Shown: positions 209-22,310, numbered from the stretch's first letter. The stretch is 22,514 nt of DNA from Candidatus Baldrarchaeota archaeon (GCA_019056805.1 DXJG01000008.1:1-22514); one strand, 5' to 3'. Notes: generated by a model not told the origin, from the sequence alone. Translations and numbers: made by a program.

Positions 209-288
209 TTTCGAAAAAAGAAAATTGACGAGATAATTTTAAATCACAAACTTTCTTACTTTTAATGGAGTGCTTAGGGGGAATACAT

Positions 289-2182
<1,894 letters not shown>

Positions 2183-2208
2183 AAGAAGTGTAAAGGGAGG
2201 AAAAATCC

Positions 2209-3513
2209 TTGGATGTTAAAGTAGATCAAACATTTATAGCTGCCCCCGAAGAAATAGATCCGGAAAACAATATTATTGCAACATATTATGTTGAAAGCGA
2301 GTATCCCACGATTAAAGCTGGAGAGCAAATTGCAATTGAAGAAAGTATAGGAACATGGACAGAAGTAACAACGGAAACAGAATGGATAAGGAAAAAACTA
2401 GCAGCAAAAGTATTCCAATATGAAAACAAAAACGAAGGCATAGTAAAAATAGCTTTCCCACTAGAGCTTTTTGATCCAGAGATCGGAGGAATACCAAACC
2501 TCCTTTCAATGGTTGCTGGAAATCTCTTCGGCTTGTCATCATTGAAAAACTGTAAGCTTCTTGACTTAGAAATGCCAAAAGAATATGTTAAAGTATATCC
2601 AGGGCCGAAAATAGGGTTAGAAGGAGTAAGAAAAATCGTAGGAACTCTTGAGGATAGAAGACCACACCTAGGAACTATCATAAAACCTAAAGTGGGATTA
2701 AACCCGGATCAAACAGCAAAAGTAGCTTATGAGGCAGCCATGGGCGGTGTAGATTTTATAAAAGATGACGAAACCCTTACTAGCCAAAAATTCTGTCCTT
2801 TCGAGGACAGATTAACTAAAGTATTGGAAAAATTAGATCAAGTAAGAGAAGAGACCGGAAGAACAGTATTATACGCTGTAAACATAACAGCAACCTACAA
2901 TAAGTTGCTAGAACTTGCAGACCTAGCGATAGATAACGGGGCAAACTGCTTAATGATAGATGTATTAACCACCGGGTTTTCAGCAGTACAAGTACTTGCC
3001 GAAGATCCTTCAATAAAAGTGCCTCTTCATATACATCGAGCTATGCATGCCGCATTAACACGAAACCCAAAACATGGAATTTCAATGATGGTGATTGCAA
3101 AACTTGTAAGACTCGCAGGAGGAGACCAGCTTCACACAGGAACAGCAGCAGGGAAAATGGGCGTTAAAGGAGAAGCAAAGAAAATTAGAAAAATAAATGA
3201 TTTCCTTAGATCAGATTGGCATGGCCTAAAAACAGTTTTTCCAGTAGCTTCAGGTGGTATACATCCAGGAATAGTACCTGTAAATGTAGAACTTCTAGGC
3301 AAAGATATCATAATAAATGCTGGTGGAGGAATACATGGACATCCATGGGGAACAAGATCTGGTGCAAAAGCTATGAAACAAGCAATAGAAGCAGTTACAA
3401 AGGGTATATCATTAGACGAATATGCTAAGGATCATCCAGAACTAGATGCAGCCCTCAAAAAATGGGGTCAACTTTACGTGGAAAAAGCAATTGGAGATGA
3501 AGAGCAATCATAA
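2209..3513 (+). CDS. rbcL: RuBisCO large subunit, form III (archaeal type)
   Basis: Catalytic set intact (spinach numbering): E60/T65 (EESIGTWT), N123 (AGNLFG), K175/K177 (GTIIKPK), K201/D203/E204 (IKDDE), H294/R295 (HIHRAMH), H327/K334 (LHTGTAAGKM), S379 (ASGG), G403/G404 (AGGG). TTG start with GGGAGG upstream. Confidence 0.95.
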   Translation: MDVKVDQTFIAAPEEIDPENNIIATYYVESEYPTIKAGEQIAIEESIGTWTEVTTETEWIRKKLAAKVFQYENKNEGIVKIAFPLELFDPEIGGIPNLLSMVAGNLFGLSSLKNCKLLDLEMPKEYVKVYPGPKIGLEGVRKIVGTLEDRRPHLGTIIKPKVGLNPDQTAKVAYEAAMGGVDFIKDDETLTSQKFCPFEDRLTKVLEKLDQVREETGRTVLYAVNITATYNKLLELADLAIDNGANCLMIDVLTTGFSAVQVLAEDPSIKVPLHIHRAMHAALTRNPKHGISMMVIAKLVRLAGGDQLHTGTAAGKMGVKGEAKKIRKINDFLRSDWHGLKTVFPVASGGIHPGIVPVNVELLGKDIIINAGGGIHGHPWGTRSGAKAMKQAIEAVTKGISLDEYAKDHPELDAALKKWGQLYVEKAIGDEEQS

Positions 3514-13973: not shown

Positions 13974-14064
13974 AGTATGATTTTTAAAAGAGATAAGAAT
14001 CATTGTTTATTGCCAAAGTTTATATTTCGATAAAATTTTATGTACATAGTTGAGGGTGGAGAAA

Positions 14065-15045
14065 TTGCCTGAAATTATTGGAATAGGAGAAATTTTGATC
14101 GATTTTGTTGCCTTAGAACCAGGATCTTATGTTGATGTATCAGGTTTCTTAAAAAGATTAGGCGGAGCACCAATGAACTGCATAATAGTTGCAAAAAAAC
14201 TTGGAATAGATGTAGGTGCTATAACCGCCGTAGGTAACGACCCTCTTGGAGACTTCCTAATTAATGAATTAAAAAAGCAAGGCGTAGATATAACTTGTGT
14301 AAAAAGGAAGAATGCACGAACAACCATTACCTTTGTAGCTAATGACCCTGAAACAGGAGAAAGAACTTTCCTATTTTACAGAGAACCATGGATCAAAGGA
14401 ACAGCTGATAACCTTCTTAGCCCCGACGATATCGATGAGAAGTATATAGCGAGAGCCAAAATCCTCCACGTTAGCGGATTTGCTATGTCTAAAGAACCAG
14501 CTAGAGAAGCAGTTCTCAAAGCAGTTGATATAGCAGTGAAAAACAAAGTCGAGATATCTTTTGACCCAACACTTCGACTAGATGTATGGCAATCTTCAGA
14601 TGAAATAAAAGATTTGTATGATAAAGTCCTAGAAAAGGCGAGTATAGCTACTTTTTCAAAAGAAGAAGCAGCATTTGTTTTAGGCGAACTTGACCCACTC
14701 GAGGCTGCGAAAAAGGCATTAAAATACGGTTTAAAAATCGTAGGGATAAAACTTGGTGGAGAAGGATCTCTTATACTGAGGGATAGTGGAAAAGGAATAA
14801 AGGCTTCTGCATTTGAAATAAAGCCGGTGGATACTACTGGTGCAGGTGATGCATGGAATGCTGCACTCCTAGTTGGCTTACTTAAAGGTTGGGGCTTAGA
14901 GAAATGTATATTGTTTGCTAACGCCGCTGGAGCTCATGCATGCATGCATAAAGGAGCTACAGAAGGAATACCAACGTTACCAGAATTAGAAAAATTTGTA
15001 GTAAGGTGGAGAAACAGAGTAAAAATAGAATACATAGAAACCTAA
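14065..15045 (+). CDS. PfkB-family carbohydrate kinase (fructokinase/KDG kinase-like)
   Basis: GIGEILID, GGAPMN, SFDPTLR, anion-hole motif DTTGAGD. TTG 14065 follows GAGGGTGG (ORF track start 14050). Confidence 0.9.
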   Translation: MPEIIGIGEILIDFVALEPGSYVDVSGFLKRLGGAPMNCIIVAKKLGIDVGAITAVGNDPLGDFLINELKKQGVDITCVKRKNARTTITFVANDPETGERTFLFYREPWIKGTADNLLSPDDIDEKYIARAKILHVSGFAMSKEPAREAVLKAVDIAVKNKVEISFDPTLRLDVWQSSDEIKDLYDKVLEKASIATFSKEEAAFVLGELDPLEAAKKALKYGLKIVGIKLGGEGSLILRDSGKGIKASAFEIKPVDTTGAGDAWNAALLVGLLKGWGLEKCILFANAAGAHACMHKGATEGIPTLPELEKFVVRWRNRVKIEYIET

Positions 15046-15050
15046 TTTTC

Positions 15051-15083
15051 TCGACAATGTCCAGGCTCTGAGTAGACTATCCA
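15051..15083 (+). promoter_or_regulatory. Candidate operator TCGACAATGTCC plus second half-site, upstream of rbsD
   Basis: Perfect GACAATGTC palindrome at 15053-15061; second GAC exactly 22 bp downstream (15075). Confidence 0.4.
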
Positions 15084-15142
15084 CAAAGGTCTTGGAAATA
15101 ATCTTAAAAATATGATCAAACAAAAATTATTAGGTGGTTTGT

Positions 15143-15538
15143 ATGAAGAAGAGGGGTATACTTAATCCCGAACTATCTAAGGTTATTGCAAGTTTAGGTC
15201 ATACAGACATGCTTGTAGTATGTGATGCCGGTTTCCCAGTGCCAAAAGAAGTTAAAAGAATAGATCTAATTTTAACCGAAAATATACCTCGATTCTTTGA
15301 CACACTAAAACTTATTTTGGACGAATTAGAGGTTGAAGGCGCTATAGTAGCAAAGGAGACAAGACAAACAAGTCCTCAAGTATATGAAAAAATCAAGGAA
15401 ATGTTAAAAGATATTCCAATAAAGGAAGTCTCACATAAAGAGTTCAAAGAAATTTCAAAACAGGCAAAAGCAGTTGTTAAAACAGGAGAATTCACACCCT
15501 ACGCAAACATAATATTAATTTGCGGAGTCGTCTACTAA
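15143..15538 (+). CDS. rbsD: D-ribose pyranase (RbsD/FucU family)
   Basis: MKKRGILN..LGHTDMLVVCDAGFP (catalytic His), SHKEFK, KTGEFTPYANIIL. ATG 15143 follows AGGTGG. Confidence 0.93.
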   Translation: MKKRGILNPELSKVIASLGHTDMLVVCDAGFPVPKEVKRIDLILTENIPRFFDTLKLILDELEVEGAIVAKETRQTSPQVYEKIKEMLKDIPIKEVSHKEFKEISKQAKAVVKTGEFTPYANIILICGVVY

Positions 15539-15736
15539 TCCTCATCTTTCCTTTTTAAACTCGACAAGAAAACATAGTTTTCAACTCTAAAACGTAGACA
15601 GAGACGCTTATAGATTTTCCATCACTAAATTTGATAATTTCAAGGAAAATTATATAAGGAACGATTAAAAGTATAAATTAATGTTAAAATTAAATCTACC
15701 CCGAGATTTTCATATGAATCAAAAGGAGGGTGAGAA

Positions 15737-17250: not shown

Positions 17251-17464
17251 TCCACTTATTATTGCTACTTTTGTAAAGTGCCCTTTTTCTCTTTATATAG
17301 TCCATTTGTATCTAAGATTATTAAAACGAATTTTCAATTCATTTTGCAGTTATCTATGATTTATGTGGCTTAAATGAGAAAGAAGTGAAAAATGTCAAGT
17401 TTTTTGTAATTTTTCTATTTGTATAGGATTTTTGTCTAAAAACAAAAATTTTAAATACTTCTTA

Positions 17465-17499
17465 TATAACATTGTCATATAACACTGTCATAAACATTT
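17465..17499 (+). promoter_or_regulatory. Tandem 13-bp direct repeat over the core promoter of the sulfur/selenium operon
   Basis: TATAACATTGTCA (17465-17477), TATAACACTGTCA (17478-17490), partial TAAACATTT. Overlaps TTATATAA 17462-17469 and follows TTTAAATA 17450-17457. Confidence 0.55.
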
Positions 17500-17529: not shown

Positions 17530-18054
17530 ATGCAAAACACCATTCTTAAGCTTTACAAAAAAGCATTTCAGCAAGCATGGCCCGCCTGGTTAGGAGGTAT
17601 ATTATTAGGGCTCTTAAATGTTTTAGAATTCGCATTCAAAAAGCCATGGGGCATTACAACGAGTGAATCCCGTTGGACTGGCTGGTTTCTTTATGCTCTA
17701 GATGTCCAAATAGACAAAGCTCCTCAATGGCTCTACTATCAGCAATATAAGACATTGATTAACCCTCCATTGCTTGACAGTGGAACTTTAATAGATATGG
17801 GAATTATCGCTGGCGCATTAATCTCTGCTCTTTTAGCTTACGATTTTAAACTTCGAGTTCCTGCTAAAAAGAGTAGGTTGGCTCAAGGATTTATTGGAGG
17901 AGTATTAATGGGCTATGGTGCCAGACTAGCCATGGGGTGTAATATTGGCGGATTCTTCAGTGCGATTCCCCAGCTAGCCTTTAATGGATGGGTTTTCTTC
18001 ATAGGACTTCTAATAGGCGGATATATTGGCGCTAAACTGGTGGTGAAATTATGA
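17530..18054 (+). CDS. yedE: YeeE/YedE-family sulfur/selenium transporter, N-terminal half
   Basis: WPAWLGG, WGITT..SRW, GGVLMGYGARLAMGCNIGGFFSAIPQL, matching the E. coli YedE N-half as I recall it (GARLAMGCNLAAFFTGIPQF). Confidence 0.85.
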   Translation: MQNTILKLYKKAFQQAWPAWLGGILLGLLNVLEFAFKKPWGITTSESRWTGWFLYALDVQIDKAPQWLYYQQYKTLINPPLLDSGTLIDMGIIAGALISALLAYDFKLRVPAKKSRLAQGFIGGVLMGYGARLAMGCNIGGFFSAIPQLAFNGWVFFIGLLIGGYIGAKLVVKL

Positions 18055-18647
18055 AACTAAAACAGCCCATGCTAGGTTTAATAGCACTAACCTTGATTTT
18101 CATTATAATCGCCATATACACCTATGTAGGACTAATTGAACTTGGAATTTTCCTTCTGTTCGGTCTAGCCTATGGAATCGTCTTGGAAAGAAGCAGATTT
18201 TGTTTTGCGTCATCGTTCAGGGATCTATTTATCACAAAGGATGCTAGATTGGCTCGTGGAGTAGCAGCAGGGATCCTTGTAGCCACAATCGGTTTCTCAA
18301 TTCTAATGATATCGGGCATACGAAGTGCCAAAGTTCTTCCCGTCGGTTTTCATACGCTCATTGGAGGCATATTATTTGGTTTTGGAATGGTTCTTGCTGG
18401 TGGCTGTGCATCAGGCACGCTCTTCAGGATCGGTGAGGGATATGTTACACTCTGGTTCGCACTACTGGGCACGTTAACAGGGATGATTCTTCTCGCAGCT
18501 ACATGGCCATTTCTATGGTACAATTACATAAAATATCAGCCTAAAATCTGGTTAGTTGACTATCTAGGCTGGGGCGGTGCCATAGCACTAACAATCTCTC
18601 TAATTCTAATCTATTACATAATTGTAACTCTTTGGGAGAAGAGGTGA
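18051..18647 (+). CDS. yedE: YeeE/YedE-family sulfur/selenium transporter, C-terminal half
   Basis: LERSRFCFASSFRD, GGILFGFGMVLAGGCASG, ends WEKR. ATGA overlap with the N-half gene. Confidence 0.85.
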   Translation: MKLKQPMLGLIALTLIFIIIAIYTYVGLIELGIFLLFGLAYGIVLERSRFCFASSFRDLFITKDARLARGVAAGILVATIGFSILMISGIRSAKVLPVGFHTLIGGILFGFGMVLAGGCASGTLFRIGEGYVTLWFALLGTLTGMILLAATWPFLWYNYIKYQPKIWLVDYLGWGGAIALTISLILIYYIIVTLWEKR

Positions 18648-18652
18648 AAGTT

Positions 18653-18883
18653 TTGAAACCCGATAGAAAACTCGATCTAAGAGGTGAAGTATGTCCTTAT
18701 CCTGTTATCTACACCCTTAAAGAACTGGACAAAATGAAAAGCGGAGAAATACTGGAAGTAATTACAGACCATCTTCCAGCAACAGAAAACGTACCAGCTG
18801 CAGTGAAGAAAAAGGGACACGAAGTACTGGAATTGAGTAAAATTTCTGTCGGCACATTTAGAATACTAGTCAAAAAGAGGTGA
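18653..18883 (+). CDS. TusA/SirA/YedF-family sulfur (or selenium) carrier
   Basis: LDLRGEVCPYP motif with the persulfide Cys; GEILEVITD. TTG 18653 follows GAGGTGA (ORF track start 18632). Confidence 0.92.
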   Translation: MKPDRKLDLRGEVCPYPVIYTLKELDKMKSGEILEVITDHLPATENVPAAVKKKGHEVLELSKISVGTFRILVKKR

Positions 18884-20286
18884 AAATAGTGGTTACTGAA
18901 ATACTCGAATACTACAAGAGCTTAGGAATTAACGTATTCAGTCTTGCATGTGGATGTGCAGTGAAAGTCGATTTAAAAGATGTAGTTTATCCAGCTCTAG
19001 AAAAAATTAAACCCGAACTTGAAAAATTAGGAATAATCCTTAATCCTAGGGAAGACGCTGACATCTTTGAACGAACAGAAGAAATACACGTATTTAGAAA
19101 AATATACAATTTAAATACACCTGTGATTGACGACCTAGACTTTATACCGGATAGAGCAGTAGCAGTTTTCTCCGTTGAACAAAGAAACGCATTTGACCCT
19201 GAAACCTTTGCACAGAAACTATTATCGGTTTATGCGAAACTAGCAAACAAGGTAGACAGATTAATCATTGGAAAGGGACATTCCATAATCGGTGCAAAGT
19301 CTCCAGAACAGGAAATAGCGGTTCTCGACTTCATACGTATTGAAGGTAAAAGTATTGAAGGGTACACCCTAGCAAATAATTGTACTGTAAGAATTTTGGA
19401 TCCTACTGATAAACCGGGTTCATCTCTCCAAGTAGAAGCTATTCTAAGCAATTCTTTAAACGATCTATTTTCTCTCGGAGTAACAGAGAATATAAGGATC
19501 TGTCCATTGTTTGACATGCCAACTAATGAACTTCTAAATGAAGCTGAAAATAACATCGGTAACTTCTGCAAAAAATATAATTTCAATCTACAAATGACTA
19601 GGCCATTAGGCTATGGTGACATTATGATGGGAGCTACGGTTATAGGTGAAACATCAAAGGAAATTCCTGCATTCAAAGACAAAATACGTAAAGGAGACAA
19701 AATCCTGATTCATAGACCAATAGGAGACCTAGCACCCATAAACCTATATTTGGCGGCTTTAATCCATGGTGAAGAATACGTCAACTCCCTAGGATTTTCG
19801 TTGAAAGAACTTGAAAAAGCTAAAAATATGGTTTTAAATGTCATGAGAAAACCGAACATACAAGTCGCTAAGGTGATTAGTAAATATTGTCCCGAATTCG
19901 GTGAGAAATTTAACGATTCAGAGCACATAAAAGAAACAACAGATATTTCAGGACCAGGGATCTATGTCTTCAAGGAAATAGCTGAAGCAGCTAATGTAGA
20001 TATGAGAATCGAAAAAATACCATTAATGAATGAGGAAATCGTGAGAACAACTGTTAGAGAATTTTTAATGCCTAACGGAACGACAGGTACCAATGGTGCA
20101 ATAGCTATCATCGCTTCAGAAGAAGTAATTGAAAGCATATACCATGATCTTAGAAAGCAAGGATATAGACCTGAAATAATCGGAACTATATTAGGGAAGG
20201 GAAGAGGAAGAGTTCTAATTCCTGAAAATGTCAGGGAACTCATGTCATCTAAAAGTTTACTAGATGAATTCGAAGTTATAAATTGA
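18880..20286 (+). CDS. SelD-like (selenophosphate-synthetase-related, archaeal subfamily)
   Basis: GINVFSLACGCAVKVDL (C-x-x-K), REDAD, SNSLNDLFSLG, TTDISGPG, PurM/AIRS-type C-terminus. About 120 aa longer than canonical SelD. Alternative start GTG 18889. Confidence 0.82.
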   Translation: MKIVVTEILEYYKSLGINVFSLACGCAVKVDLKDVVYPALEKIKPELEKLGIILNPREDADIFERTEEIHVFRKIYNLNTPVIDDLDFIPDRAVAVFSVEQRNAFDPETFAQKLLSVYAKLANKVDRLIIGKGHSIIGAKSPEQEIAVLDFIRIEGKSIEGYTLANNCTVRILDPTDKPGSSLQVEAILSNSLNDLFSLGVTENIRICPLFDMPTNELLNEAENNIGNFCKKYNFNLQMTRPLGYGDIMMGATVIGETSKEIPAFKDKIRKGDKILIHRPIGDLAPINLYLAALIHGEEYVNSLGFSLKELEKAKNMVLNVMRKPNIQVAKVISKYCPEFGEKFNDSEHIKETTDISGPGIYVFKEIAEAANVDMRIEKIPLMNEEIVRTTVREFLMPNGTTGTNGAIAIIASEEVIESIYHDLRKQGYRPEIIGTILGKGRGRVLIPENVRELMSSKSLLDEFEVIN

Positions 20287-20453
20287 ACCAACAAATCCGA
20301 CAAGATCTTAACCATCTCATTAAGGGAACCATCCTTGAGTTAATCGGAAAAACACCAATCGAGAGGAATAATGGACGAGGGGTAATTGTTACAATATTTT
20401 TCGATGAGATTGAAAGGCGCTTAAGTACCGAAGTTTTGGAGGAAATTAAATGA
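20283..20453 (+). pseudogene. 56-codon internally deleted cysteine synthase (CysK/CysM)-like remnant
   Basis: TTG 20283 to TGA 20453 reads MNQQIRQDLNHLIKGTILELIGKTPIERNNGRGVIVTIFFDEIERRLSTEVLEEIK. ILELIGKTP resembles the CysK N-terminus (ILELIGNTP); GVIVTIFFDEIERRLST resembles its C-terminus (IVTIFPDxGERYLST). TTGA and ATGA overlaps at the two ends. Confidence 0.62.
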
Positions 20454-21271
20454 AACTTCCTAAAATGAACTACCATATTCATACAATATTCAGCGATGGG
20501 AAAAACGAGCCATCAGACTATGTTGAACGGGCCATAGCTATTAAAATAGATGAAATAGGATTTTCTGACCATCTCATAATCCTAGAAAATCTAAAACCAT
20601 CTAAAAACTCAATGGAACCTAGAAAACTAGATCTTTATATCGAAGAAATAAATGAAATTAAAGAGGAATATAAAGGCAAAATAGAGATAAAATGTGGCTT
20701 GGAAGTAGATTACATTCCGCAGTCATTCAAATACACCTTAAAACTACTAAACGAATACGATTTTGACTTTCTTATTTTATCCGTACATAGAATTGGAAAA
20801 TTCCATATTGATAGTCAAAAATCAAGAAAAATATGGAAAAAACTAAGTTTAAACGAAATTAGGAAAGTTTATTCAAGCTACTTCAAAATTTTACAAGAAG
20901 GTGCCAAAACAGGAACATTCGATATCGTTGCTCACTTTGACATAGTGAAAAAATTCGGATATAAACCAGATTCATTACCAATTAATCAAATAGAAGAATT
21001 AATTGAAACGATTAACTCCTATGAAATGGCTGTAGAAATAAACTCCGCAGGTCTAAGACACCCCGTCAAAGAAATTTATCCCGCCGAAGAAATAATAAGC
21101 ATTCTAATTAAATACAAAACTCCACTAACTTTAGGAACAGATGCTCACATCCTAGAACATCTGAACTATGGTTTAGATAAGATAATTAATATTCTAAGAA
21201 AAAAACATTACTCCTTTTCAGATAAACTTAAAAGAAACAATCTAACCATTTTTTCACATCCAACCAAGTAA
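20450..21271 (+). CDS. PHP-domain phosphatase, histidinol-phosphatase HisJ family
   Basis: YHIHT..SDG, FSDH, GLEVDY, LSVH, DIVAHFD, EINSAG, TLGTDAH. Confidence 0.88.
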   Translation: MKLPKMNYHIHTIFSDGKNEPSDYVERAIAIKIDEIGFSDHLIILENLKPSKNSMEPRKLDLYIEEINEIKEEYKGKIEIKCGLEVDYIPQSFKYTLKLLNEYDFDFLILSVHRIGKFHIDSQKSRKIWKKLSLNEIRKVYSSYFKILQEGAKTGTFDIVAHFDIVKKFGYKPDSLPINQIEELIETINSYEMAVEINSAGLRHPVKEIYPAEEIISILIKYKTPLTLGTDAHILEHLNYGLDKIINILRKKHYSFSDKLKRNNLTIFSHPTK

Positions 21272-21371: not shown

Positions 21372-22310
21372 ATGACCAAGATTTTCAGAGTAAAATTTGA
21401 ATACTACCTTGTAGCTATGGGCTTCATTATCCAAATTATAAGTTTATTCTTTCCTCTCTACGAATATTATACCTCCTCACCCTACGTTGGAACTGGTCCT
21501 TTCCGTAAAATAACTCTGGTATATGAAAGCCCACTTAACTTACTCATTCCACTCAGCTTTATTTTGCTGGTATATTCTGTATATAAAGACGATCTGCGAA
21601 TTAGATGTTATTCAGCGATTTTCTCGTTTACATTTCTATTAGAATTCTACATCCTTCTCATTAAAGGAACAGCTATTCCCTTCCCAACAGACGAGCTCCC
21701 TACATCTGGCGAATACCTTATCCTTCTCCCTGGAATATATGCATATACCGCTGGATTCTTACTCATTTTATTCTCACTATTAGTCTCCATCTCAGAAAGG
21801 TCTTTCACCATTAAAGCCATTATTCAAAACAAAATCGACATACTCGGCCTTCTGCTATTCATATCTCTAATTTCATTTTACTCGATTGAGGTAGGAACGG
21901 CATCCATAGTTTTCTCGTATTTGGAGAAATTTTTTATCCAATATGAAATTCTTTTTTGGCTTTTTTATTCTGGCACGATTTCACCTATGATACTCATCCT
22001 TCTTTTCATCTTTGACCTCATATTAACATTTAAACTCGGTCAGAAGTCTTTACTTGACATAAAATCCCTTTTCAGTGTTGAACAGGTTAAGAAATCCTTT
22101 ACATGGTTTATCTGGGCCGTTGCTGCAATATCCTACATTGAATGCGATAGACTAAGATGGTATTTTTATCCTCCATTTGGACTCATACGTCTTGCTGCTT
22201 TCTGGTTATTATTGATAGGTTGGTCAGGAGGATGCTCTTTATTCGTAATGGACATCATAGTGAATATGATTATTTACTTCAAATTGGCTAAACAGATCAG
22301 AGAAAACTAA
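21372..22310 (+). CDS. Hypothetical polytopic membrane protein
   Basis: 312-aa ORF with about 8 hydrophobic segments and a strong GGAGGAGGG SD. No family recognised. Confidence 0.7.
   Translation: MTKIFRVKFEYYLVAMGFIIQIISLFFPLYEYYTSSPYVGTGPFRKITLVYESPLNLLIPLSFILLVYSVYKDDLRIRCYSAIFSFTFLLEFYILLIKGTAIPFPTDELPTSGEYLILLPGIYAYTAGFLLILFSLLVSISERSFTIKAIIQNKIDILGLLLFISLISFYSIEVGTASIVFSYLEKFFIQYEILFWLFYSGTISPMILILLFIFDLILTFKLGQKSLLDIKSLFSVEQVKKSFTWFIWAVAAISYIECDRLRWYFYPPFGLIRLAAFWLLLIGWSGGCSLFVMDIIVNMIIYFKLAKQIREN

Follow-up and report, generated by a model that had tools for sequence, protein, structure and literature searches.

A putative operon for sulfur import, relay and activation around a SelD-related enzyme in a Candidatus Baldrarchaeota genome

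A family of proteins related to selenophosphate synthetase (SelD) was described computationally in 2014, together with a model in which its members produce thiophosphate (Li et al., BMC Genomics 15:908, PMC4210487). The family was reported from Sulfolobales and Thermoproteales only, being absent from Desulfurococcales and bacteria, and was linked to SirA/TusA, a Prx-like (COG2210) protein and acylphosphatase. In the YeeE/YeeD system (TsuA/TsuB), a cysteine of YeeD accepts sulfur from thiosulfate delivered by YeeE, and the downstream acceptor was left open (Ikei et al. 2024, PMC11073785). YedE has been tied statistically to SelD, and archaeal YedE is split into two adjacent genes (Lin et al. 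2015, PMC5322559). Here we describe an operon of Candidatus Baldrarchaeota in which genes of these kinds, a split YedE/YeeE-type channel, a TusA-type carrier and a SelD-like enzyme, stand together with a remnant of a CysM-like gene and a gene for a PHP-domain phosphoesterase. It lies in a 22.5-kb stretch of DNA (22,514 nucleotides, hereafter the window) that makes up the whole of contig C16 of a 1.92-Mb genome (18 contigs, 91% complete). We tentatively read it as a laterally acquired operon whose products import sulfur, relay it and activate it with ATP.

The operon occupies positions 17530-21271 of the plus strand and consists of six co-directional open reading frames (ORFs), all of which are present as initially annotated. 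The junctions are, in order, ATGA, GTGA, GTGA, TTGA and ATGA. The ATGA junctions are located at 18051-18054 and 20450-20453 and the TTGA at 20283-20286, while each GTGA lies within a GAGGTGA (18641-18647 and 18877-18883). Likelier start codons are found 5 nt downstream of both GAGGTGA sequences, TTG 18653 for TusA and GTG 18889 for the SelD-like gene, and since these match the gene calls in relatives, both junctions are regarded as fusions of a stop codon with a Shine-Dalgarno sequence. The same tight geometry in three related contigs (L098-L100) shows the operon to be genuine rather than a coincidence. Direct reading of the junctions thus confirmed the tight coupling claimed in the initial annotation, and its gene identities were upheld by Pfam and NCBIfam scores. 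Upstream of the first gene is a 280-bp non-coding stretch with a TATA-like box. The features are as follows.

17449..17457, + strand: TATA-like box TTTTAAATA of the operon promoter, kept in L098, L099 and L100 despite diverged flanks
17464..17492, + strand: tandem operator-like sites, 2 x ATATAACAyTGTCATA (ACA-n-TGT palindrome core), between TATA box and start codon
17530..18054, + strand: YedE/YeeE-type channel, first half (174 aa; PF04143 126.7 bits; NF033796 positions 2-158)
18051..18647, + strand: YedE/YeeE-type channel, second half (198 aa; PF04143 105.3 bits; NF033796 positions 189-382)
18653..18883, + strand: TusA/YedF-type sulfur carrier (76 aa; alternative starts 18644 and 18632, giving 76-83 aa)
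18889..20286, + strand: SelD-related PurM-fold enzyme (465 aa; alternative GTG start 18880, 468 aa; NF038049 542 bits)
20283..20453, + strand: relic of a CysM-like pyridoxal phosphate (PLP) enzyme (56 codons; in-frame internal deletion, joint near 20360)
20450..21271, + strand: PHP-domain phosphoesterase, HisJ family (273 aa; PF02811 80 bits)

The SelD-related enzyme matches model NF038049, 'SelD-related putative sulfur metabolism protein', with 542.4 bits (cut-off 250) over model positions 4-464 of 465. The protein exceeds SelD by about 120 residues and fails the canonical SelD model TIGR00476 (21.1 bits, 16.7 in the genome scan, against a cut-off of 125). Among 18 diverse members of the family, a G-C-x-V-K motif (C23 and K26 in the window), D56, D147, N188, D192, D352 and a T-G-T-N-G-A motif are invariant, and an extra cysteine (C21-G-C23) is specific to the clade of the window. 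Alignment to E. coli SelD with hhalign places N188, D192 and D352 on N87, D91 and D227. By pattern, the Cys-x-x-Lys motif corresponds to C17/K20 of the E. coli enzyme, 'REDAD' to D51 and 'LDF' to D68. This correspondence agrees with that of Li et al. 2014 (PMC4210487).

A sequence search of the PDB with the family profile gave nothing at E<=0.001, so that a comparison of folds was needed. The AlphaFold2 model of the enzyme (predicted local distance difference test, pLDDT, 93.5; predicted template modelling score, pTM, 0.92) was most similar to SelD structures, with Z scores of 28.8 (3fd5), 26.4 (2yye) and 25.2 (3u0o) over about 300 aligned residues at a root-mean-square deviation of 2.8-3.1 A. 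The next matches were HypE (Z about 24), ThiL (about 21) and PurM (about 19). Insertions relative to SelD make up about 150 residues of the enzyme. The conserved residues and the modelled structure indicate that the PurM fold, the N-terminal Cys/Sec-x-x-Lys loop, the four Asp plus Asn, and with them the ATP and metal site of SelD, are kept in the SelD-like enzyme.

The neighbourhoods of the family were surveyed in the flanks of 80 genomic loci, with neighbours counted within 7 kb. A TusA-like gene, mostly abutting and co-directional, is present at 59 of the 80 loci, tandem rhodanese at 27, a YedE-like channel at 21-23, DsrE at 10, FTR1 permease at six, ThiF at five and a DSP-type phosphatase at four. 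In 17 of the 80, the SelD-like enzyme itself carries a C-terminal acylphosphatase fusion. The 56-aa ORF and the PHP gene were each found at 0/80. Six Thermoproteota lineages (Pyrodictiaceae, Desulfurococcales, Acidilobaceae, Aeropyrum, Thermofilaceae and 'Benthortus') have YedE, TusA and the SelD-like gene colinear in this order, and in Nitrososphaeria the order is either TusA-SelD-like-YedE-FTR1 or SelD-like-TusA-TusA-rhodanese. The combination YedE-TusA-SelD-like, whose lack of conservation elsewhere would have counted against the initial annotation, recurs widely. Likewise the family, which that annotation placed in Sulfolobales and Thermoproteales, was also found in Desulfurococcales, Nitrososphaeria, Hydrothermarchaeales, metagenome-assembled genomes of Methanobacteriota, Bipolaricaulota, Fraserbacteria and the Asgard-type genome of the window. 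The enzyme of the window shares with the 2014 description the Cys-x-x-Lys and Asp/Asn set, the TusA/SirA neighbour and the thiophosphate hypothesis; that paper (PMC4210487) does not mention links to genes for YedE, rhodanese, FTR1, CysM-like or PHP proteins.

Several further features of these neighbourhoods were recorded. Beta-propeller proteins recur beside SelD-like genes in Bipolaricaulota (L026, L029, L057) and Thaumarchaeota (L049, L051); they give cytochrome-D1/YNCE-like matches and, in one case, a weak match to the SBP56 selenium-binding family. In Pyrodictiaceae/Desulfurococcales (L058, L061, L062, L066) the SelD-like gene is followed on the same strand, after about 300 nt, by a gene for a DSP/PTP-type phosphatase. 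In L098, the closest relative, the region 569-3446 preceding the operon encodes a MoaD-MoaE fusion, a MoeB/ThiF adenylyltransferase and a SufS cysteine desulfurase, which make up a thiocarboxylate-type sulfur-carrier set.

A physical association between the carrier and the enzyme is supported by structure prediction. The predicted complex of TusA with the SelD-like enzyme reached an ipSAE of 0.78, which is the model's own confidence and was obtained from unpaired alignments, versus 0.00 for the best of three controls; in a benchmark the value of 0.78 was met by 58 of 80 solved complexes and by 2 of 110 mismatched pairs. The runs share at least 78% of contacts, with a partner pLDDT of at least 87. 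In the predicted interface, TusA residues 13-19, including Cys17, lie against residues 391-395 of the enzyme and against its residues 15-28, around C21 and C23. We know of no solved TusA-SelD complex.

The chemistry catalysed by the enzyme could differ from that of SelD. The same substrate chain might operate with no release of thiophosphate, ATP driving another step on carrier-bound sulfur, for example an ATP-driven release or reduction of the persulfide, a HypE-like dehydration, or transfer to an adenylated or phosphorylated acceptor. HypE and ThiL come close behind SelD in the structural comparison (Z 21-24), and the acylphosphatase fusion recalls the HypF-HypE pairing. Furthermore, acylphosphatase, DSP-type phosphatase and PHP genes recur beside the enzyme, and a phosphorylated intermediate could simply be hydrolysed. 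Taken together these alternatives are nevertheless rather unlikely: the Cys-x-x-Lys loop and the Asn, peculiar to SelD among the proteins of the PurM superfamily, are invariant here, SelD structures come first by 3-5 Z units, and the enzyme has no conserved HypE-type C-terminal cysteine motif.

Both channel halves pass the Pfam model PF04143 (cut-off 27), and the carrier, with 89.1 bits, passes PF01206 (cut-off 28.6). Three cysteines of the channel, C137 of ORF1 (10/13 sequences) and C51 and C119 of ORF2 (both 13/13), correspond to the three relay cysteines described for YeeE (PMC11073785). The cysteine of the carrier motif G-x-x-C-P-Y-P is invariant, as C-P-(Y/W)-P, across 24 operon-linked TusA homologues. 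The operon thus resembles YeeE/YeeD in having a PF04143 channel with three relay cysteines beside a TusA-family CPxP carrier. It differs in that the channel is split into two genes, as it also is in L098-L100, and scores far below the cut-offs of the TsuA/YeeE models NF041049 and NF052577 (41-90 bits; cut-offs 645 and 400). A further difference is the presence of a SelD-like enzyme, presumably ATP-dependent, at the point where the acceptor was left open for YeeE/YeeD.

The best NCBIfam model for both channel halves is YedE/FdhT (NF033796; 121.2 and 138.5 bits), with both scores below the cut-off of 350; TIGR04112 matches one half only, with 40 bits (cut-off 200). The carrier is nearest to the single-domain YedF model NF008242, falling just below its cut-off (78.3 versus 79 bits). 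With its 76-83 aa it has no DsrE domain and scores 34 bits against the 110 of the two-domain YedF model TIGR03527. The split of the channel is that described for archaeal YedE (PMC5322559). ORF1 matches the C-terminal and ORF2 the N-terminal half of the Pfam and TsuA models, in swapped order, and the two are colinear with the YedE/FdhT model; the YedE and YeeE channel types therefore appear, from these alignments, to be mutually permuted. In L057 the YedE channel and TusA are apparently fused in one ORF of 476 aa.

These affinities raise the question of selenium, which the initial annotation had kept open beside sulfur. The operon might import and activate selenium, the enzyme being a divergent selenophosphate synthetase that serves a selenium use not yet known. 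The enzyme retains the whole catalytic set of SelD as well as its fold, the top-scoring models are those of YedE/FdhT and YedF, and YedE is linked to SelD in genomes (PMC5322559). The 91% complete host genome was searched for selenium traits. No canonical SelD was found, the best match (93 bits) being a HypE/ThiL-like protein; no tRNA-Sec was found (best Rfam score 31 bits, threshold 47); and searches for SepSecS and SelU gave no match. An ARAGORN 'tRNA-SeC' call (G000 C9:448264-448366) was rejected as a mis-parse of an intron-containing tRNA, whose acceptor stem has the usual 7 bp and whose variable loop is short. The SelD-like family is moreover found mostly in lineages without any selenium trait (PMC4210487). 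Its genomic partners are sulfur-trafficking proteins, as it travels with rhodanese, DsrE and CysM-type genes. In addition, the cut-off of neither YedE model is reached, and the operator of the operon is common to cysteine desulfurase genes (see below). A role in selenium metabolism is consequently quite improbable, and the substrate is probably sulfur.

The fifth ORF, 56 codons in length, has no Pfam match at E<=10, and a PDB search with it returned noise only. Its origin is clear only because the intact gene is found in relatives. The closest SelD-like relatives, 75% and 74% identical, are encoded on metagenomic (Logan) contigs with the gene order YedE1-YedE2-TusA-SelD-like-PALP, in which the gene for the PLP enzyme (PALP; 330 or 311 aa) overlaps the stop codon of the SelD-like gene. 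Residues 5-30 of the window ORF align with residues 2-27 of the PALP of L100 (54% identity), and residues 26-56 with residues 281-311 (68% identity). Alignment at the DNA level shows a clean, in-frame loss of about 765 bp with homologous flanks on both sides. The PLP-lysine region (S-V-K-D-R) and the entire catalytic core are missing. The joint near 20360 is bridged with 0 differences by independently assembled contigs of runs X2 (20209-21100; a second sample of the same study) and X3 (19600-20609; a different study), which indicates a real natural allele and not an assembly error. A contig of run X4 extends less than 31 letters beyond the joint and was left out of this count. The guess that a cysteine synthase had decayed here was thus borne out, the remnant being that of a CysM-like gene.

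The PALPs linked to SelD-like genes form a clade of their own (SH-aLRT support, a Shimodaira-Hasegawa-like likelihood ratio test, of 99), apart from E. coli CysK and CysM and from the genome's housekeeping enzymes, two bona fide cysteine synthases encoded elsewhere (cysKM 390 and 357 bits). Those of the relatives fall below the cysM/cysK equivalog cut-offs (about 285 versus 344-394 bits). Like CysM and the O-phosphoserine sulfhydrylases, they retain the PLP lysine, the SGN loop and the CysM-type double-arginine G-x-R-R-P loop. The double-arginine loop of CysM accommodates anionic partners such as thiosulfate or O-phosphoserine. Five Bipolaricaulota-type loci encode a CysM/CysK-type PALP directly upstream of the SelD-like gene, whereas in the clade of the window it follows that gene; their SelD-like enzymes form the nearest clade to that of the window in a quick tree with SH-aLRT support (99). 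That the two genes are linked in two different orders speaks for a functional relationship rather than for synteny that was simply inherited. From these sequences, the CysM-like enzyme looks like the dedicated sink of the window's clade, and not a second sink as first supposed.

With its sole dedicated sink gene destroyed, the operon could be a decaying remnant, without function since the deletion and heading for loss. A member of the SelD-like family was found in one of 400 genomes of the phylum, the window genome, and is absent from three congeners and the 399 other genomes. The locus is also situated just beyond a synteny break: the region 14,032-15,658 of the window matches a congener with 76% DNA identity and 79-84% protein identity, so the contig is not mis-binned, and the synteny stops before HxlB, PfkB and the operon. 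Decay is nonetheless very unlikely. The remaining five ORFs are undamaged and retain the residues for catalysis or relay, the in-frame deletion preserves both coupling junctions, the promoter and operator are conserved, and the identical deletion allele was recovered in two independent studies. We tentatively regard the operon as laterally acquired, as part of the overall reading given above.

The PHP-domain protein passes the HisJ-family models TIGR01856 (164.3 bits versus 90.2) and NF005596 (205.5 versus 202), as would be the case if it were a histidinol-phosphate phosphatase that merely stands at the end of the operon and has no role in sulfur metabolism. Its absence from all 80 other SelD-like loci, as well as from L098 and L099, is in line with this. 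However, hisD and hisB (imidazoleglycerol-phosphate dehydratase, IGPD) were not found in the window genome (91% complete) and were detected in 14/14 control genomes, which would leave a histidinol phosphatase without a pathway to serve. L100 encodes a PHP protein in the same position that is 70% identical, and in both loci the gene is translationally coupled to the operon by ATGA. PHP homologs in other members of the phylum share only 30-39% identity with it, and the genus, the order and the nearest families lack them. This difference in identity suggests that the PHP gene travels with the operon of this clade, and an ordinary role in histidine synthesis is thus unlikely. In place of the part in a complete general module that it was first given, the gene is lineage-specific. 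The recurrence of three kinds of phosphohydrolase, the acylphosphatase fusion, the DSP-type phosphatase and PHP, fits a phosphorylated product or intermediate.

The TTTTAAATA box and the tandem ATATAACAyTGTCATA sites are kept upstream of the operon in L098, L099 and L100. The operator unit occurs 8 times in the genome, whereas about 2.3 occurrences are expected. Sites were found 33 nt upstream of iscS-iscU, in an ORF-free gap downstream of iscU, upstream of an FTR1 permease gene (a perfect palindrome), near a radical-SAM gene, and within a gene, the last probably by chance. Outside the operon, the palindrome TATAACA-n-TGTTATA is located at G000 C3:26642, C11:215455, C11:217186 and C9:277745. 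In a congener that lacks the operon, the palindrome precedes a SufS-type gene and is found at the same place downstream of iscU. The FTR1 of the window genome is 60-63% identical to FTR1 proteins encoded inside Nitrososphaeria operons, and a phosphoribosyltransferase (PRTase)-domain protein encoded beside iscSU is homologous to proteins encoded divergently from SelD-like genes in four Thermoproteota loci. The PRTase-domain protein was considered as the regulator acting on the operator and dropped, as no DNA-binding domain was detected. From the distribution of these sites, the operon seems to be wired into a regulon for sulfur and iron mobilisation, and TATAACA-n-TGTTATA is a candidate mark of an archaeal sulfur/iron regulon.

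Two observations concern copies of this operator elsewhere. The 650-nt gap downstream of iscU (L134:2900-3556; G000 C11:214899-215555) carries an operator copy and no ORF of at least 70 aa, and the copy has the same position in congener G001 (L142); the gap may hold a small gene or an RNA. In congeners G001 and G002 (L137, L140, L147, L148), a repeated element of about 35 nt, GTATCA..TTAACAGTGTTATACCTAAA.TTTGTCC, contains the operator core and is possibly a dispersed promoter or mobile element.

According to the reading that we tentatively favour, the two-piece channel would admit reduced or sulfane sulfur such as thiosulfate by way of its three relay cysteines, and the TusA-type carrier would accept the imported sulfur on its CPxP cysteine. 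The loaded carrier would then dock at the N-terminal Cys-x-x-Lys loop of the SelD-related enzyme, which most likely uses ATP to form thiophosphate or an enzyme-bound phosphorylated sulfur. In the ancestral operon of the clade, the dedicated CysM-type PLP enzyme would have turned the activated sulfur into cysteine. This step would be a counterpart, with sulfur and a free amino acid, of the supply of SelA or SepSecS by SelD; an activated chalcogen would be passed, by analogy, to a PLP enzyme acting via an aminoacrylate intermediate, although SelA and SepSecS are tRNA-dependent. The PHP phosphoesterase would remove phosphate from the product or an intermediate. After the deletion, the line would end at the SelD-like enzyme and PHP, and the outlet would now presumably be the two housekeeping cysteine synthases and the iron-sulfur (Fe-S) machinery, the latter having the operator in common with the operon.

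A number of points weigh against this reading. The PHP gene is evidently not a general requirement. For the channel and carrier, the selenium-associated models YedE/FdhT and YedF give better scores than TsuA/TsuB, and with a genome that is 91% complete, the absences reported above are not proof. The CysM linkage is limited to one 13-member clade of the SelD-like family, and with cysM deleted, the proposed end use cannot run in the window as it would in the relatives. C23, K26, D56 and D147 were mapped by motif, since hhalign covered residues 183-375 only, and the docking score expresses the confidence of the model in itself. A literature search found no biochemistry for any member of the SelD-like family, and a 2026 review still terms its role speculative. 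Of the overall picture drawn in the initial annotation, the gene identities, the coupling and the relic stand, whereas the narrow range of the family and the cysteine synthase as second sink call for correction, and the genome gives the selenium option no support.

The proposal can be extended further, although it is then not likely to be correct in full. The SelD-like enzyme and its dedicated CysM-like partner would constitute a tRNA-independent sulfur counterpart of selenocysteine synthesis, with thiophosphate, formed from ATP and the sulfane sulfur on the carrier, as a natural metabolite. The CysM-like enzyme would add thiophosphate to aminoacrylate, giving S-phosphocysteine, from which a phosphoesterase would free cysteine; this would be PHP here and an acylphosphatase or DSP-type enzyme elsewhere. 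On a wider scale, the module might be an ATP-driven source of sulfur, missing so far, for archaeal cysteine and Fe-S synthesis, wired in this organism to the iscSU/FTR1 regulon.

Elsewhere in the window, positions 265-3513 encode enzymes of archaeal AMP salvage (ribose-phosphate diphosphokinase, ribose-1,5-bisphosphate isomerase and type III RuBisCO), followed by an Lrp-type regulator, xylulokinase, fructose-6-phosphate aldolase, a sugar ABC transporter, HxlB and a PfkB kinase. Positions 21372-22310, shortly after the end of the operon, encode a multi-pass membrane protein of 312 aa without a family match, for which no homolog was found in the four nearest genomes, congeners included.

The core SelD-like module is already known from the family published in 2014. 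New here are the Asgard-type host, the link to CysM-like and PHP genes, the natural in-frame deletion, the docking model and the shared operator. The SelD-like family has posed a biochemical puzzle since it was described, and if the enzyme makes thiophosphate, this would be a new natural sulfur carrier and would provide a new route to assimilate sulfane sulfur without free sulfide. As a hypothesis, the SelD-like enzyme also answers the question raised by YeeE/YeeD, namely which protein takes the sulfur from the carrier. The window and its relatives name a donor, TusA loaded by the YedE channel, and a candidate acceptor, the dedicated CysM-type enzyme. Furthermore, they supply a candidate finishing phosphatase and a natural knock-out of the acceptor. 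The value of the finding is that the chemistry of the family is made directly testable.

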